A stretch of 64,000 nt of DNA, taken from Candidatus Borrarchaeum weybense (GTDB lineage: Archaea; Asgardarchaeota; Sifarchaeia; Borrarchaeales; Borrarchaeaceae). Where the stretch lies: NCBI GenBank assembly GCA_019057385.1, contig JAHQJS010000004.1, positions 128,001-192,000 of the forward strand, written 5' to 3'. This document shows positions 9,125-46,424 of this stretch, piece by piece. The first letter of the stretch is position 1, and the number at the start of each line of letters is the position of its first letter. A program made the position numbers and the translations under genes. Under the pieces are notes generated by a model. That model was not told where the DNA came from, did no database searches, and saw nothing but the letters and a program-made list of their open reading frames with translations.

Positions 9125-9211
9125 ATGATGATCTTAATGCAATCCACTTTCCTTACTAGTTCTTATCATGCTTTCTATAACTTCTTCCCAGGAACAACGA
9201 CGACGTACTAA
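9125..9211 (+). CDS. Putative leader peptide of ask-asd (MMILMQSTFLTSSYHAFYNFFPGTTTTY)
   Basis: 28-codon uORF with a run ACA ACG ACG ACG before the stop, followed by a hairpin and GGAGG-U5. Confidence 0.6.
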   Translation: MMILMQSTFLTSSYHAFYNFFPGTTTTY

Positions 9212-9308: not shown

Positions 9309-10724
9309 ATGCGTGTTGTTATGAAATTTGGTGGCACTTCAATTGGTAATGGATCGAATTTCGGTCATGTAGCAAAAATCATCAATTCTTATGCAGAAAG
9401 TCATGAGACAATCGTATTGGTTTCAGCAATGGCAGGAGTTACCGATCAGTTAATTGACTGCGCAGAACGATCTCAAAAAGACATTACAAAAGAAGTTCTC
9501 AGAGATTTTATTCAAGAATTACTGAAAAAGCATCTAAAAGCGGCAGAAGAGAGTATCGATGATGAGTTCATCTTAAAAGAGGTCGAACAAAAACTTACTG
9601 AAACTCTCGAAGAATTAGAAAGAGTATTGATTGGCATCTCTTTATTAAAAGAGCTGAGTTCACAGGCTAAAGATAAAGTTATGTCTTTTGGTGAACGACT
9701 ATCGACACCAATTCTTTGGGGTGCAGTCAAGAACTTGAATATTCCTGTTGTGTATTTAACGGGATATGAGGCTGGAATTGTCACAGATGAACGCTTTGGA
9801 AACGCTCGACCTATTTGGAATATCTCCATTGAAAAAATTCAGAAAACTCTTGTGCCTCTTCTTGAACAGCGATACACAATAATTATTTCTGGTTTTATTG
9901 CAGGGACTGAAGATGGTCTTATCACAACTTTGGGACGTGGTGGTACTGATTTTTCTGCAGCGATAATTGGGACTTCCATTGAGGCTGATGAAATAATTTT
10001 TTGGAAAGAAACAACTGGTGTTTTAACTACAGACCCAAATCTTGAGCCAAATGCACAGACTATACCTTCTTTGTCGTATGCCGAAGCGATGGAACTTGCC
10101 TACTTTGGGGCGAAGATTCTCCATCCTAAATGCCTTCAACCTGTTATGGAGAGAGAAAACATTCTGGTTCGGGTCAAAAATACGTTTAAACCTGATGCAG
10201 AAGGATCAATAATAGTCCCCGCTACGGAACAGGTTGAAAATGTCGCAAAGGCAGTAAGTGTACTATTTAATGCTGGAATAATAGAGGTTGGAGGTGCTGA
10301 GATGATCGGCACCCCTGGAATTGCAGCTCATATATTTGGTGCCTTCGAGAAAGCTGACGCAAATGTTATAATGATTTCTCAAAGTAGTAGCGAAGCAAAC
10401 ATCTCTGTCGTTGTAAATCGCTCCGATATAAGAAAGACAGAAAAAGTGTTGAAAGAGACATTTGCTTATACAAACTATATCAAATATGTTCGAAGCGAAG
10501 ACGACATATGCGTCATTGGAGTAGTGGGAGAAGGTTTAAAGGGTACTCCTGGAGTTGCAGCTAAGGTTTTCCAAGCGGTTGCACAAAAAGGGGTAAACGT
10601 CCGGATGATTGCACAAGGATCATCAGAATTAAATATCAGTTTTGTTGTCAAGGAAAAAGACGGAGGCTTAGCTGTTAGGGCACTTCACGAGGCTTTCGAA
10701 TTAGGTGAGAAAATAATTAAGTGA
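9309..10724 (+). CDS. lysC: Aspartate kinase with two ACT domains
   Basis: MKFGGTS, VSAMAG, TTLGRGGTD, ELAYFGAKILHP and MIAQGSSELNISF. Confidence 0.95.
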   Translation: MRVVMKFGGTSIGNGSNFGHVAKIINSYAESHETIVLVSAMAGVTDQLIDCAERSQKDITKEVLRDFIQELLKKHLKAAEESIDDEFILKEVEQKLTETLEELERVLIGISLLKELSSQAKDKVMSFGERLSTPILWGAVKNLNIPVVYLTGYEAGIVTDERFGNARPIWNISIEKIQKTLVPLLEQRYTIIISGFIAGTEDGLITTLGRGGTDFSAAIIGTSIEADEIIFWKETTGVLTTDPNLEPNAQTIPSLSYAEAMELAYFGAKILHPKCLQPVMERENILVRVKNTFKPDAEGSIIVPATEQVENVAKAVSVLFNAGIIEVGGAEMIGTPGIAAHIFGAFEKADANVIMISQSSSEANISVVVNRSDIRKTEKVLKETFAYTNYIKYVRSEDDICVIGVVGEGLKGTPGVAAKVFQAVAQKGVNVRMIAQGSSELNISFVVKEKDGGLAVRALHEAFELGEKIIK

Positions 10725-34990: not shown

Positions 34991-36061
34991 TTATTTCTCA
35001 ATGATTGTCTCCGAAATCTTTGTACCAAAATGCCGGCCTCCTTCCTCAGCATGAATTAATATCGTGTCTCCTGTCTTAAGATTAGTTACTGATATTGGTT
35101 TCCCGCTACCATCGACTAGGCGGATAGTTTCAGCATTTTGCAGAAGTATTTTATAAACCGTTGCATTATATTCAGCTTCCACCAAAAGAAGTGGTCTACT
35201 CTCTATTTTAGAACGGCCTACAATGACAATACGTGCGGTACCATCGTTTTTAACAGCCAAAATTTCGTTTCCCGCCTTAATTTCAGATAAATATTTCGTT
35301 TTTTTGTCCTTAGCGAGTATATATGAATGAACTGCGCCAGCATTTACCCGAAAAGGTCGTGTTTCTACATAAGGACTCTCAACGGTTTCACTATGAACTA
35401 AAAAATATCCTCCGCTTTGTGATCCGACTAACATTCCTTCTCCTAAAGATAACATTGAACATGTATCAATACATGCCCTGTCGCCCATGCCTACCTCTTT
35501 TATGGTAATAATCTCGGCTTTAGAGAGTGCGATCTTTATTTTATTCACGTCTTTCAGTAAATCTGCAGCGTTTGTTATGTCACTAAGTATATCAGGCTTC
35601 AGTAAAATCCCATCAGCACCTTTTTCTAAAATCTCTATATTCAATTTCGCTTCAGCAATATCTTTGGAAACCGCGATAATTTTGCAATCTTTGATTTCAG
35701 CGATCAGATTTTCAAGTGGGATAATTTTCCATTCGGTCCCTTCAACTATTACCGCCTGTGCCTTTTTAGAGGCTTCAACTACTCGTCGTTCATCTTCTTT
35801 TGAATTAATGATGATATATGGGACGGTATGGTCGTTTATGCCCTTGATATCGTCATCAGATAAAATTTCTACTAATTTAAAATCGGCATCGGTCCCTCCG
35901 AGGGTTGTAATACTCCCTAATTCTTTCACTTTACTTGATTCTCCTTCTTTGACCATTATTTTGGAGGCATCTGACTCTAATGACTTGGTGATATACTTCT
36001 TACGTTGATTCCAGTCGAGATCTTTATGAGCAGCATTTATCCAGAGTTCTTTTGCATTCAT
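34991..36061 (-). CDS. aroB': 3-dehydroquinate synthase II (archaeal AroB')
   Basis: WKIIPLENLIA, GMGDRACIDTC, RPFRVNAGAVH, LQNAETIRL and GRHFG; ATG 36061 after GGTGA. Confidence 0.95.
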   Translation of the reverse strand: MNAKELWINAAHKDLDWNQRKKYITKSLESDASKIMVKEGESSKVKELGSITTLGGTDADFKLVEILSDDDIKGINDHTVPYIIINSKEDERRVVEASKKAQAVIVEGTEWKIIPLENLIAEIKDCKIIAVSKDIAEAKLNIEILEKGADGILLKPDILSDITNAADLLKDVNKIKIALSKAEIITIKEVGMGDRACIDTCSMLSLGEGMLVGSQSGGYFLVHSETVESPYVETRPFRVNAGAVHSYILAKDKKTKYLSEIKAGNEILAVKNDGTARIVIVGRSKIESRPLLLVEAEYNATVYKILLQNAETIRLVDGSGKPISVTNLKTGDTILIHAEEGGRHFGTKISETIIEK

Positions 36062-36066
36062 TACTA

Positions 36067-36183
36067 TCACCAAAATATGTTTAGAAACCAAATATTTGGA
36101 AAATATGTTGAGGCGGTAGTCGCTAATTCTTTAATTTCTTCAAATTTTCCTTCTAATTGCAGGATAATTTGTTTATCCGTCAA
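36067..36183 (-). CDS. 38-aa intercistronic ORF (AroB'-like N-terminus with an aromatic-rich tail)
   Basis: TTG overlaps the aroA' stop and follows a GGAGGT RBS: MTDKQIILQLEGKFEEIKELATTASTYFPNIWFLNIFW*. Confidence 0.45.
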   Translation of the reverse strand: MTDKQIILQLEGKFEEIKELATTASTYFPNIWFLNIFW

Positions 36184-36962
36184 ATTTTCACTACCTCCAG
36201 CGTCTCATCAACTGTCCATCCGTCATACACAATTTTTACAATCGCTTGGACTATCCCTGTCGGATTATTGTGTTGAAACACATTTCTGCCAAAAGTAAGC
36301 CCCATACAACCAGATTTCATGGCACCTTCTACCATCTCAAGCACTGCTCTATCATTATCCGCCTTTTCACCTCCAGCGATAACTATTGGCACAGGACATC
36401 CACGAACAATATCTTTGAAAGTCTCTGGCGAACCCGTATAATTACATTTTACGATATCAGCGCCCAATTCAGCGCCAATTCGTGCAACCATAGCGATATT
36501 TTTGGGATCTAATGGATCTTTCACGTTTTCTCCACGAGCATACATCATTGCAATCAAAGGAATTTGCCACTGATCACATTTATCTGCGAATTCGCCGAGT
36601 TTGAGTAGCATCTCTGGTTCTGTTTTACAGCCTATGTTGATATGCAGACTGACCGCATCAGCACCGAGCCTTATAGCTTCTTCAACTGATCCTGTCCTGA
36701 CCTTTTTGTTTGAGTCTGGTCCCAAAGAGGTGCTTGCAGAAAAATGGGCAATGAGCCCGCAATTCGGGACTGCTTTTAAAGATCGTATGATACCTTTATG
36801 AAGCAAGACAGCACTTGCACCGCCTTCCACAACCTTAAAAACAGTTTCATCCATATCTACTATGCCTTTCACAGGCCCTAGACTCACTCCATGATCCATT
36901 GGTATAATGATTGCTTTACCATTTTTTAAAATTCTATTTAATCTAACTTCTTTTCCGTTCAT
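36180..36962 (-). CDS. aroA': 2-amino-3,7-dideoxy-D-threo-hept-6-ulosonate synthase (AroA')
   Basis: PMDHG, AMMYARG, ELGADIVK and GRNVFQH (DhnA-type aldolase); next to aroB'. Confidence 0.92.
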   Translation of the reverse strand: MNGKEVRLNRILKNGKAIIIPMDHGVSLGPVKGIVDMDETVFKVVEGGASAVLLHKGIIRSLKAVPNCGLIAHFSASTSLGPDSNKKVRTGSVEEAIRLGADAVSLHINIGCKTEPEMLLKLGEFADKCDQWQIPLIAMMYARGENVKDPLDPKNIAMVARIGAELGADIVKCNYTGSPETFKDIVRGCPVPIVIAGGEKADNDRAVLEMVEGAMKSGCMGLTFGRNVFQHNNPTGIVQAIVKIVYDGWTVDETLEVVKI

Positions 36963-36987: not shown

Positions 36988-38223
36988 TTAATTTGGCAAG
37001 TTAAGGGCTTCTTTTACTTGTTTAAGTGCGCTTTCTCTCTCGTTCCAGTTTACAAAAACCCGGATATTTGAGTTTATAGTGAGAAAACCATAGAGGTTCA
37101 TTTCCGTAAAGGGGTAACTTATCCGCTCAATAACACCCGGCGTAGTCTCAAGATCTCGTCCACTAATCGTTATAAGTGCTAAATCATTATGATTGGTTAT
37201 TGCCTTGCCAATTTTGGCTTCGATCATTTTTTTATGAAGTATCTCAACTAAAGAACCAGAATCTGTTTCAGGGATAGTTGCATAGAATATTACAGATCCA
37301 CTCTCTAGCGATGCACCGACAAGTTCGCATCCCATCTGTTGTATTTCATCGATAAATAAGTGGATATTTTTGGCTTTAACGACCTCTTTGCCGATTATAG
37401 TAATCATCTGTAGCCTTTGATTGAAAAGCGAGGCATGAAGGTCAGGGAATACCGCACCACTAATAATCGTTCCTCCCTCAGAGATATGTCCGTTAGAGAA
37501 TCCAACAATGCGGATATTCATGTCTTTTGGCTTAAATCTCAATGCTTTATTATGGATGACTTTTGCTCCTGCGGAAGTTAAGGACATGACCTCTTCAACA
37601 TCCAAATGTTCTATAAGCGCTGTTTCATGGATCTTCTTAGGGTCACCTGAAAAAACGCCCTCCACATCTTTGACTAAAATCACTTCAGAAGCGTTTAAAC
37701 AGTTACCAAGTATCACCGCAGTCGTATCCGCACCACCGCGTCCTAATGTCGTGATTTTATCTGTAATTCGGTCCTTGCCTAAAAATCCTGGAATAACAGG
37801 GACTTTATTTTCAGCAAGAAGTGGCAGGATGTGTTCTTGTATCGCCTGCTGCGTTTCCACCATATCTGGCTCAGCATCTCCATGTCTTGAATTCGTGTAG
37901 ATGGGCCACGAATCAGAAACAGGATCAATTAAAGCAGCATCCATATTTTTGCTAGTGAGTGAACTCATCATCAAACGTGCGCTTGTGCGTTCGCCCATAG
38001 CGAGAATATCATCCATCTCATGTAATTTAACTTTTCCGTTGGTGCAAGATTGTGCGAGCGAGAGGAGACTGTCCGTCATGCCGTTCAAAGCCGATACTAC
38101 GACTACAAGGCCTTTTACCTGAGCAAGTTCATTAAGAATGTGATCAGCAGCCTGTCCTATTGCTTCACCAGAGCCTAGACATGAACCTCCAAACTTTACC
38201 ACAACGATAGAATCTTTAACCAT
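36988..38223 (-). CDS. Second aspartate kinase, first gene of the aromatic operon
   Basis: VKFGGS, GERTSAR, TTLGRGGADTTA, KDVEGVFSGDP and GAKVIH. Confidence 0.92.
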   Translation of the reverse strand: MVKDSIVVVKFGGSCLGSGEAIGQAADHILNELAQVKGLVVVVSALNGMTDSLLSLAQSCTNGKVKLHEMDDILAMGERTSARLMMSSLTSKNMDAALIDPVSDSWPIYTNSRHGDAEPDMVETQQAIQEHILPLLAENKVPVIPGFLGKDRITDKITTLGRGGADTTAVILGNCLNASEVILVKDVEGVFSGDPKKIHETALIEHLDVEEVMSLTSAGAKVIHNKALRFKPKDMNIRIVGFSNGHISEGGTIISGAVFPDLHASLFNQRLQMITIIGKEVVKAKNIHLFIDEIQQMGCELVGASLESGSVIFYATIPETDSGSLVEILHKKMIEAKIGKAITNHNDLALITISGRDLETTPGVIERISYPFTEMNLYGFLTINSNIRVFVNWNERESALKQVKEALNLPN

Positions 38224-38253
38224 CAAAAAACCTCCAGAAAATCGCTTTATCCG

Positions 38254-38310
38254 CTAGAAGCGGAAATAGCTATAAAAGCTAAAGCTAGTAAAATAACTCC
38301 AAGAGGGCAT
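38254..38310 (-). CDS. Putative aromatic leader peptide MPSWSYFTSFSFYSYFRF
   Basis: 18 codons, 9 of them Trp/Tyr/Phe; hairpin over the stop codon; stop about 30 nt upstream of the ask ATG. Confidence 0.6.
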   Translation of the reverse strand: MPSWSYFTSFSFYSYFRF

Positions 38311-38522
38311 TGCATATGCGTCAGAAAACGAAGAAAGCTTGTATTCTAGTTCTTTAAATAACATTTCATTCGAAAGCCAAGAGGTGTAACCTAAGCAATC
38401 CAATGGTGTCATCTTAGTAAAAATTAGTCCTCCGCACCACAGACACCTCTCATGCGAAACAATAGGCAACACCCTATTTTATATTAGTACGCTCTCTATT
38501 TCATATCTATCTTATAAACCTT

Positions 38523-39056
38523 ATGTTGGTTAGCTTTGGAGAGCTAATTATTCTGGTGGTGAGCTTTTTAAAAATCGAGTTAGAAGTTGAACTTACTGAC
38601 AAACCGGGAGAACTAGTAAGGTGTTTAGAACCCATATCTGCTCAAGGAGGAAATATTTTACAAGTTATTCACCATAGGTCATTAGATGTTGGAAAAGGAG
38701 TAGCACCTGTTTCAATTCATTTTGAAGTTGAAAACATCGATGTGATTGAAGATATTAAGAATGCCATCGAGCAGCAGGGTGTGCATGTAGTAAAATGGGA
38801 ACAAGAGTTTGTAGGGTTCAAGAAAATTGTGCTTCTTATCGGACATGTTTTTCAGAAGGATATCACAGATACAATTATTCGTCTTCTTGACAGTGGTGTT
38901 TTAGTGAATGAAGTTAATGCAAAAATCACGCAGAAAGAGGAAGTTTCAACCGTGAAGTTTTCGATTGTAGGTGATACCGAACAGAAGATTCAGGAAGCCA
39001 TGAAGCTTTGTAAAGAAATCTCAATGGAAAAAGGGCTATTCCTAATCAGAGGTTGA
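38523..39056 (+). CDS. ACT-domain protein (regulatory partner of homoserine dehydrogenase)
   Basis: LTDKPGEL...PIS..GGNI..VIH and LIGHVF..DITDTI; overlaps the hom start; true start probably a later GTG. Confidence 0.85.
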   Translation: MLVSFGELIILVVSFLKIELEVELTDKPGELVRCLEPISAQGGNILQVIHHRSLDVGKGVAPVSIHFEVENIDVIEDIKNAIEQQGVHVVKWEQEFVGFKKIVLLIGHVFQKDITDTIIRLLDSGVLVNEVNAKITQKEEVSTVKFSIVGDTEQKIQEAMKLCKEISMEKGLFLIRG

Positions 39057-44594: not shown

Positions 44595-46100
44595 CTACGT
44601 TTTATGATAATCATCAATTCTCCCGGCTTTCATGAAGGAGGAAGAACCAGCCTTAAGGTTATCGGGCTGTGCGCTCGTCACCGAGTTCAACACATACTTC
44701 ATTAATACTGCTTTTTTCAGTATTTCGGCAGTCTTGAAGGACGTTATCCCGCTGTGCTCAAAGAGGTCATGGATCATCGACCAGCTACGGTAAGGACTGC
44801 CCTTTTTCAAATGAGGCTCTATAAACTCCTCAACTTGTGAGAGCACCCAATTGTAGACGGCTAGAAATGCTTCCTTGAAACCCAGCCCTCTTCGAGCTAT
44901 TACATAACTTGCTAAGTGATGGGTTGACAAATTATGTAATCCTGAATAGGAGTATCTGCCGATGATAGAGGTATATCCCGGGAATACCTTTCGAAAGGAC
45001 ACACCGCGCTTTTTGCATTTTCGCTCTAACAGTTGCAGGGCGGTGGTCTTCATATTGCTTAATTTTCGGTTGCGTTTTGTATTATAGGAAAATTCTTGCT
45101 CGAATTGTAAGTCCTCGACCACGATTCCCTTGCCCTTATTGATGCAGTAATTGACGATTTTATCCATTTTGTAGGAAATATAATCATTACGTTTGTCGGT
45201 TCGATAGTTGTGCAGGTTGTTAAACGAGATGCTATGATAGGAGAGTAAATTACCGTGTGTATCCACATTGGTTAACGCCGCAAAATTATAGTTAAAATCC
45301 AAGCCGATGGCGCCATGTTCGTAGCCGTAACGTGGTGGCGGCTCTGGAATCTCATAGGACACATGGACAAAATAGCGAGTTTTCCCCTTGAAGAACTTTC
45401 TTTTGACGGTCACCGTGTATTTGTCAGCATTAAGAATCTGCTGAAACCATTTTTCCTGTACTAGGTTTACGGACATAGGAATGATCAGCCACTTGCGTCC
45501 CTTTTGCTTGGAAAAGGTGCGTATCTTGACGGTTTTATCGGGCAATACTTTGAGGTTCACGTTCTTCAATCCTTGTTGCTTCTTTCCGATGCAACTGAAG
45601 GATGAGTCCCGTCGTATCCTGAACTCTTCCCTACTTATGGTGTCGCGTATTCTCTGCCTGAATAATTTCTTGGTGCCGAATACTACGGGTTCGAGATGTA
45701 AATTGTGTAGTTTCGCCATGATCGAGGATCTGCGGGCGTATAAGCCCTTCAATCGTCTGTCATGTGTGTTTTGCTCCTTTATTTTGTTGATTTTTTTGGT
45801 AATGACTGTTAACTGCTGTGCCATGCGTTTGCGTTGTTTTTTTAGCCAGGTCTTTTGTGAATCCAGTTTCATCTTGTTATCAATCAGGATGGTGTTGACA
45901 TAGGGGTTGTTATGACATAGCCCCATCAAACATTGTTGGATGGTTTTGCCTTCACCGAAGCGTGTTGCCATGTAGTCTTCGCCATGAAACAACAGATTAT
46001 AGCCGATGCGTTTCATACGGTTATAGCTAGTGAAGATCTCATGGAGCTGATGTTCTTGTGCCTCATCGGGATATATTCTGAATTTGACGGTCTGTATCAT
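44595..46100 (-). mobile_element. tnpB: TnpB-related RuvC protein (long archaeal type), no adjacent TnpA
   Basis: FRIYP N-terminus, GLDFN, IVVEDL, PGYTSIIG and HHLASYVIARRG; GGAG RBS before ATG 46100. Confidence 0.88.
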
Positions 46101-46424
46101 AGTGATCGACTGCTCCTTTATCTTATAGTAGGCTTTATTAATAAACCCCGCACTTTTAGGAGTACCTCGCACTATATCGTGTCTCTGAGCATATCGGTCA
46201 CAGAAAATATTAGTTATAGCTGCTGCTACTCTATGTCGATGAATCCTTCTTAATGAGTATCGGCTTTACACTGCTTGATCTGCTGAAAAAATGGATTGTA
46301 ACCAATGGAGGAGGACTACAATGCCTGTAAAAAACGTATGGATCATAACGCGAACGTGCATTGACTTTTTAATAAAAATAGTTAATCTCAACTATATATT
46401 TAGTAAAAGAAGATATAAAAGGGG

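Follow-up and report, generated by a model that had tools for sequence, protein, structure and literature searches.

What is the role of an open reading frame (ORF) of only 57 nt, rich in aromatic codons, that ends just ahead of an operon of the archaeal aromatic pathway? The question is raised by a window of 64,000 nt (the whole stretch of DNA analysed, to which all positions refer unless a contig is named) from the uncultured Asgard archaeon Candidatus Borrarchaeum weybense, in which the short ORF MPSWSYFTSFSFYSYFRF, with Trp, Tyr or Phe at 9 of its 18 residues, stops 30 nt 5' of the ATG of ask, the first gene of the ask-aroA'-aroB' operon; leader and operon lie together on the minus strand (Table 1). 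A preliminary description of the locus had taken this upstream ORF (uORF) for a Phe/Tyr/Trp-rich leader peptide, with coordinates and gene families that agree with ours. The evidence presented below suggests that the ORF is probably a ribosome-stalling leader which senses the supply of aromatic amino acids and would tune ask-aroA'-aroB' through unmasking of the Shine-Dalgarno (SD) sequence of ask.

Composition alone says little in this respect, since the 37% GC genome of 4.18 Mb holds 778 windows with at least 9 aromatic residues in 18 when read in six frames; the preliminary description had itself warned that U-rich RNA encodes Phe, Tyr and Ser by default. A sharper statistic is obtained when uORFs with a start codon that end 15-120 nt before a gene are scored by the number of aromatic residues among their C-terminal 12. 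Scores of at least 7/12 are reached by three of the 1940 upstream regions of the genome (0.15%) and scores of at least 6/12 by 1.2% of them; the uORF at the ask-aroA'-aroB' locus scores 7, and those of its relatives 7-9. Another of the three regions with at least 7/12 lies at a second TrpB-like gene (L067, G000:C6:804470-805780; L, G and C are our handles for loci, genomes and contigs), where a TTG-initiated uORF, LSFYRYTFYFLY, is found 28 nt upstream; this case is ambiguous, as an ATG-initiated ORF in another frame overlaps it.

Conservation of frame and codons in relatives had been named as a check on the leader-peptide reading, and it is indeed found. Among ten same-genus sequences (ask 75-82% identical) collected from GTDB genomes, JGI metagenomes and other public assemblies, all ten retain the leader frame together with 9-14 aromatic codons. 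The GTDB class of the host comprises six species only, and the closest ask relative, 82% identical, is labelled Promethearchaeota (Asgard); 539 relatives of ask were recorded at E<=1e-80. Variable positions of the tract switch between TTT, TAT and TCT, and the two indels seen in the alignment, of 3 and 12 nt, are both in-frame. Invariant or nearly so are CCC-N-TGG, the last four codons (TAT TTC CGC TTC), the stop codon, the SD and the U tract that follows it, the GGAGG and the run of U6-7 being unchanged in all ten sequences; the succession of SD and U6 had been correctly described before. Over 300 nt of upstream sequence the identity to relatives is 77-80%, compared to 41-54% at the 4-fold degenerate sites of ask, and this region is therefore under purifying selection. 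Taken at the level of sequence, the alignments demonstrate selection within the genus on the leader, on its frame and on its aromatic bias.

The comparison was extended to deep lineages with ask 36-43% identical, in which the region upstream of ask-(asd)-aroA'-aroB' was inspected in 14 lineage groups. Six deep lineages and two weaker cases carry unrelated small ORFs in which Phe, Tyr and Trp cluster at the C-terminus or close to it (Table 1), and these stop 42-84 nt before ask. GAGG or GGAG stands 7-12 nt before the leader start in most of these other lineages. As the codons differ by lineage (UAC/UUC versus UAU/UUU), what is shared is the amino-acid class and no nucleotide motif. At least 6/12 aromatic residues are found in 6 of the 14 groups, which has a probability of about 1e-8 under the conservative null of 1.2%; as the groups are akin to one another, this figure overstates their independence. 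These upstream regions show that an aromatic leader accompanies this operon again in deeply separated lineages of archaea and, combined with the frame and codons kept in the ten genus sequences, support the leader-peptide interpretation first put forward in the preliminary description. Two further elements were noted in the course of this comparison. Frey/Jord- and Loki-labelled ask-asd-aroA'-aroB' loci (L005, L035-L038, L072), which have no aromatic leader, carry instead two direct copies of the approximately 31-nt AGGTGTGGTnnTTTGGTGATGCCCTGCCAAT, located about 60-190 nt upstream of ask, at which an Rfam search gave chance-level matches only. In L039 and L041-L045 a second ask paralogue, with no aroA' after it within the locus, is preceded at about 80-120 nt by a conserved mini-uORF, M(W/R)MDYFF...

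A genome-wide leader scan with family checks showed that the aromatic leader has companions in the same genome. A Thr leader, MMILMQSTFLTSSYHAFYNFFPGTTTTY (..FPGTTTTY before the stop), precedes the canonical ask and is conserved in three congeners (G002, G003, G004), in which the Thr codons change synonymously; it is followed by a hairpin and then by GGAGG-U5-GATG, which opens a second conserved mini-ORF, MSISYQKLYLSKNRG, ending at the ask SD. A Trp leader (..SWHPWHSWRWQ) stops 84 nt before trpB2 (G000:C5:117790-117981, minus strand), a lysX/argX ligase gene is preceded at a distance of 197 nt by an Arg leader whose last codons are (CGA)7 (C7:791280-791414, minus strand), and a comB-like gene of the 2-phosphosulfolactate-phosphatase family is preceded at 63 nt by a Ser leader with nine Ser codons at its end (C5:143216-143302, minus strand). 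A U6-U7 tract comes after each of these three leaders. In three leaders of the genome (Trp, Arg and aromatic) the stop codon sits in the loop of a hairpin whose 5' arm consists of the regulatory codons, a layout like that of segment 1:2 of bacterial attenuators. Two hits of the scan were discarded as false positives, namely a uORF rich in Leu upstream of a TnpB-like gene and a seemingly Arg-rich frame which proved to be lysW read out of frame. We incline, with some reserve, to the view that archaea including the Asgard group run a general, hitherto undescribed system of leader peptides read by ribosomes (represented here by at least aromatic, Thr, Trp, Arg and Ser leaders), which would share its logic with bacterial attenuation while its output, suited to the machinery of archaea, would be SD unmasking and/or oligo-U termination without a classical terminator, and in which the aromatic leader is either ancient or repeatedly evolved across Asgard archaea and Thermoproteota.

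How the leader might act on ask is suggested by two predicted RNA structures. The pairing UCCGCU/AGCGGA over the stop codon, already seen in the preliminary description and here called hairpin A, occurs in all ten same-genus sequences, with 6 bp in this genome and 9 bp in most relatives, and the same design is seen in L007, L071, L031/L052, L074 and the Trp and Arg leaders of the genome. The z-score of the stop-codon hairpin is about -1 in the genus, which is not unusual, and -3 to -4.7 in L007, L071 and L047-49. The alternative helix B joins the last leader codons and the stop to the SD segment of ask and is mutually exclusive with hairpin A, the bases GCU being common to both. As MAFFT misplaces the UAG/UAA column, the register of helix B was checked by script, and it is kept in all nine sequences tested, with a compensatory change from G:C here (UAG/CUGG) to A:U in the others (UAA/UUGG); RNAalifold finds the helix as well. 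Its energy, -10.0 kcal/mol in this genome, ranges from -6.0 to -8.4 kcal/mol in relatives, and the predicted probability that the SD is unpaired is 0.13 here, 0.06 in L002 and 0.54-0.68 in L062 and L003. The last codons of the leader likewise pair with the SD in L047-49 and L070.

Other pairings named in the preliminary description fare less well. That of GCUUUUAU with AUAAAGC is confined to this genome, relatives carrying GGGAUGCAGC at the site; that of the 5' CCUCUUGGA with the SD does exist here but is weakly kept in relatives, in which the 3' end of the leader is the better conserved competitor for the SD. The nearly invariant CCCUCUUGGAG pairs well with the SD in minimum free energy folds of this genome only, a middle base of U or A weakening the pairing in relatives. 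As a candidate attenuator signature, TGGA[AG]GTTTTTT?GAT was rejected: it occurs four times in the genome, three times in leaders, and the fourth is an ordinary ribosome-binding site (RBS).

The proposed sequence of events is as follows. Dense Phe, Tyr and Trp codons would tie ribosome transit to the supply of charged aromatic tRNA. On a leader without a ribosome, GCUUCUAG would pair with the ask SD segment CUGGAGGU and keep ask translation low, and a second pyrimidine block, CCCUCUUGG, may also pair with the SD. When aromatic amino acids are scarce, ribosomes would dwell or queue on the leader, cover the anti-SD segments and free the SD, while hairpin A would compete for the bases of helix B; the U6 directly after helix B may add premature termination. 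The ask-aroA'-aroB' operon supplies the archaeal dehydroquinate route with aspartate semialdehyde. The output we favour is translational derepression by ribosomes that stall or queue. Its sign is right for a stall at any point of the tract, and the same output logic has been shown experimentally for the poly-Cys short ORFs of mycobacteria (bioRxiv 10.1101/834739).

Several results weigh against this reading of the locus. In its energy, helix B is only slightly out of the ordinary (p about 0.03-0.07 for the prespecified segment), its covariation consists of a single compensatory event, and hairpin A is predicted to beat it in several relatives. Masking of the whole uORF raised predicted SD accessibility in L001, L002, L047, L049, L050 and L070, that is, in only 6 of 13 usable sequences, and masks of a single ribosome under equilibrium folding gave no consistent opening of the RBS. 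The start codon of the short ORF varies within the genus (ATG in three sequences, GTG in five and GCG in one at a contig edge, L004 being cut before the start), and no SD precedes the ATG at 38310. A longer in-frame ORF from 38412 is open in six of seven sequences, and six lineage groups possess the same operon without an aromatic leader.

Alternative explanations differ either in the output or in whether the peptide matters at all. In classical transcription attenuation the leader would still sense aromatics, but transcription would end prematurely at U6, and either helix B or hairpin A would supply the terminator stem; a ribosome stalled at the 3' end of the leader would block this stem and give read-through. 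Archaeal RNA polymerase terminates at oligo-U, and a hairpin may be unnecessary for termination in archaea. The U6-7 tract is invariant in ten sequences and helix B ends right at it; all five leaders of the genome are followed by U5-U7 before the gene, with the Thr, Arg, Trp and Ser tracts well upstream of the start codon, and the hairpins of L007 are followed by U5 and U4GU4. Runs of T5 or more are, however, very common (48,072 TTTTT in the genome), the U6 is here just the spacer between SD and ATG, and L047-49, L031/52 and L074 have no U run of at least five between leader and ask. Since the SD/U-tract 16-mer TGGAGGTTTTTTGATG is found in front of an ordinary gene at another place in the genome as well, the ask RBS is a normal strong one and maybe also an oligo-U terminator. 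An intrinsic terminator between leader and ask was not found, the stem before U6 being a weak helix in which three of the 8 bp are G:U and which closes a loop of 16 nt. Moreover, with close coupling a ribosome at the stop codon would block the stem too, and read-through would then occur in the presence of ample amino acids, the opposite of the sign required. We regard termination at U6 as the main rival or as an added layer, and as an explanation it seems rather unlikely. Of the attenuation proposed in the preliminary description, the leader peptide is supported, and the output may be either transcriptional or translational.

The aromatic frame might also be the by-product of a U/A-rich repeat in an RNA that is structured but not translated, or in a leader to which a protein binds, for instance in TRAP-like fashion at UAGC repeats. 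Four UAGC motifs do occur in the tract, Ser is always encoded by AGC or AGU beside U-ending codons, UAUAGCUAUA palindromes recur in L007, L047 and L070, the 5' leader contains a helix with covariation, and no SD precedes the short ORF in the genus. TRAP binds 9-11 evenly spaced triplets at intervals of 2-3 nt; no (G/U)AG triplet array of that type was found here, as the UAGC motifs are irregularly spaced (7, 9 and 15 nt), and none occurs in L031/52 or L050, which retain the Phe/Tyr cluster. The tract indels are in-frame, other lineages have an SD and a start codon, synonymous changes are seen in the Thr codons of the sister Thr leader, and Rfam 15 gave no match with E of at most 1 in 38150-38600, T-box and riboswitches included. 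Such an RNA or protein-binding element is accordingly improbable. Even less credence is due to a chance ORF within a promoter or operator shared with the divergent ACT-hom genes, whose conservation would reflect DNA-binding sites. The intergenic region is common to two divergent amino-acid operons and aromatic-rich windows are frequent in the genome; yet the leader recurs in lineages without the divergent arrangement, conservation continues as far as the start of ask, a long way from the conserved TATA, the upstream motifs have no second copy in the genome, and the null probability across lineage groups has been given above. The comparative data already disfavour this explanation, which we consider very improbable.

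The frame of the short ORF is also open from the ATG at 38412, which gives an ORF of 52 aa. This 52-aa ORF was rejected as a conserved small protein: substitutions in the first 36 codons are spread over the three codon positions without bias (7/11/8, 6/6/8 and 8/7/6), non-synonymous changes far outnumber synonymous ones, a 4-nt deletion in L064 breaks the frame, and RNAalifold predicts a helix in the region. The helix pairs 38451-38443 with 38387-38379 (GAGAGGUGU:ACACCUCUU) and follows a GC>GU>AU path. A protein search with a 72-aa ORF returned no homologue. The segment 38311..38412 is probably a structured 5' leader RNA and not a conserved protein. A 39-nt element, GAGAGGTGTCTGTGTTGTGGAGGNCTAGTTTTT, is tandemly duplicated in four relatives (L002, L046, L064, L066); the 5' helix and this duplication may constitute a second regulatory layer. 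As a DNA regulon motif the upstream motifs were rejected, the genome having no further copies of them. An ATG at 38315 in another frame, raised earlier as a caveat, does give a 22-aa ORF, but the ATG is absent in relatives, the stop shifts and the frame is unconserved.

Transcription of the leader likely starts from the near-palindromic TATA box TTTATAAG, which lies some 290 nt 5' of ask in the interval that separates its operon from the divergent ACT-hom operon and is kept in every relative that covers the site; it is possibly a bidirectional promoter for ACT-hom and ask-aroA'-aroB'. The box TATTTAAA proposed earlier as the promoter is present at 38360-38353 but unconserved in relatives. Divergent from the ask operon are an ACT-domain gene and hom, the start of the former being probably a GTG that gives 162 aa, matching the annotation in relatives. 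The ask of this operon appears to be the paralogue dedicated to the aromatic pathway. Downstream, aroA' is 87-92% identical in the genus; the gene after it matches aroB' at 80% in L002 and at only 38-42% in L003/L004, which suggests a replaced or paralogous 3-dehydroquinate synthase II in the latter.

Table 1. Positions of the leader, its RNA structures and nearby genes in the window, and C-termini of aromatic leaders in other lineages (each C-terminus ends at the stop codon)
Feature	Coordinates	Strand	Details
Short leader ORF MPSWSYFTSFSFYSYFRF	38254..38310	-	ATG 38310-38308, TAG 38256-38254; aromatic tract from TGG 38301-38299 through TTC 38259-38257
In-frame upstream extension	38311..38412	-	52-aa ORF from ATG 38412
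CCCUCUUGGAG	38297..38307	-	codons Pro-X-Trp-Ser; nearly invariant; candidate 5' anti-SD
Hairpin A, UCCGCU/AGCGGA	38250..38264	-	stop codon at junction of loop and 3' arm
Helix B	38230..38261	-	GCUUCUAG (38261-38254) with CUGGAGGU (38237-38230); last leader codons and stop against ask SD
ask RBS	38225..38235	-	SD GGAGG 38235-38231, then U6 38230-38225
ask, aspartate kinase	36988..38223	-	411 aa; ATG 38223-38221; genus relatives 75-82% identical
aroA', ADH synthase (2-amino-3,7-dideoxy-D-threo-hept-6-ulosonate synthase)	36180..36962	-	TIGR01949, 336.9 bits (cut-off 299)
aroB', 3-dehydroquinate synthase II (DHQ synthase II)	34991..36091	-	PF01959, E 1.3e-128
TATA box TTTATAAG	38511..38518		near-palindromic
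Thr leader MMILMQSTFLTSSYHAFYNFFPGTTTTY	9125..9211	+	
Canonical ask	9309..10724		471 aa
TnpB-like ORF	44598..46172	-	525 aa; weak TnpB-family match, E 3.9e-11
Leaders of L007 (two tandem leaders), L071 (labelled Heimdallarchaeota)			..FYMYSYCYSYTY (last part ..YSYCYSYTY), ..YSYRYSYTYRV
Leader of L031/52/53 (labelled Bathyarchaeia)			..FQAYFFYYGP
Leader of L047-49			..SWRFYSFSYFFYN (last part ..WRFYSFSYFFYN)
Leader of L050/54			..FYDSFEYYYYFS (last part ..FEYYYYFS)
Leader of L051			..FCYFGSYFTTY
Leader of L074			..AYSWPLYGYSW
Leader of L070 (Terraquivivens)			..GYSYYRYSELDASL (includes ..GYSYYRYS..)

Leader-peptide attenuation is a textbook bacterial mechanism that needs coupled transcription and translation. 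The archaeal leader resembles the ribosome-mediated transcription attenuators of E. coli (pheL-pheA, pheM-pheST, thrL, trpL, hisL) in directly preceding a biosynthetic operon as a small ORF packed with end-product codons near its C-terminus, in having the stop codon at a hairpin with the regulatory codons in the 5' arm, in its predicted competing pairings and U run before the structural gene, and in belonging to a set of leaders for different amino acids within one genome; pheL has been reviewed (PMC3082878). Unlike these, it is hosted by an Asgard archaeon with Thermoproteota relatives, mixes Phe, Tyr and Trp, has no canonical GC-rich terminator, and precedes an operon of the archaeal aspartate-semialdehyde/6-deoxy-5-ketofructose 1-phosphate (DKFP) route and not genes based on 3-deoxy-D-arabino-heptulosonate 7-phosphate (DAHP); in the genus its stop codon is only 30 nt away from the gene, with whose SD the 3' end of the leader is predicted to pair. 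Like the poly-Cys 'Cys ribulon' of mycobacteria (bioRxiv 10.1101/834739), leaders of this kind occupy several loci in one genome. The mycobacterial short ORFs are bacterial, leaderless, Cys-specific and experimentally shown, whereas the archaeal leader is a prediction from sequence and its duplex is short and rich in G:U pairs. A literature search for leader-peptide attenuation in archaea returned bacterial attenuators only and no archaeal description. What appears to be new is the extension of the leader-peptide phenomenon to an Asgard genus and to ask-aroA'-aroB', in a layout in which the tail of the leader would pair with the SD.

If this reading is true, ribosome-based amino-acid sensing would reach into the archaeal domain, and one ask paralogue would be dedicated to aromatic synthesis, with the other ask placed behind the Thr leader. 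The simple sequence signature of these leaders could serve to annotate such regulators in metagenomes. It would also offer a handle on transcription-translation coupling and on control by the 5' untranslated region in the closest prokaryotic relatives of eukaryotes.

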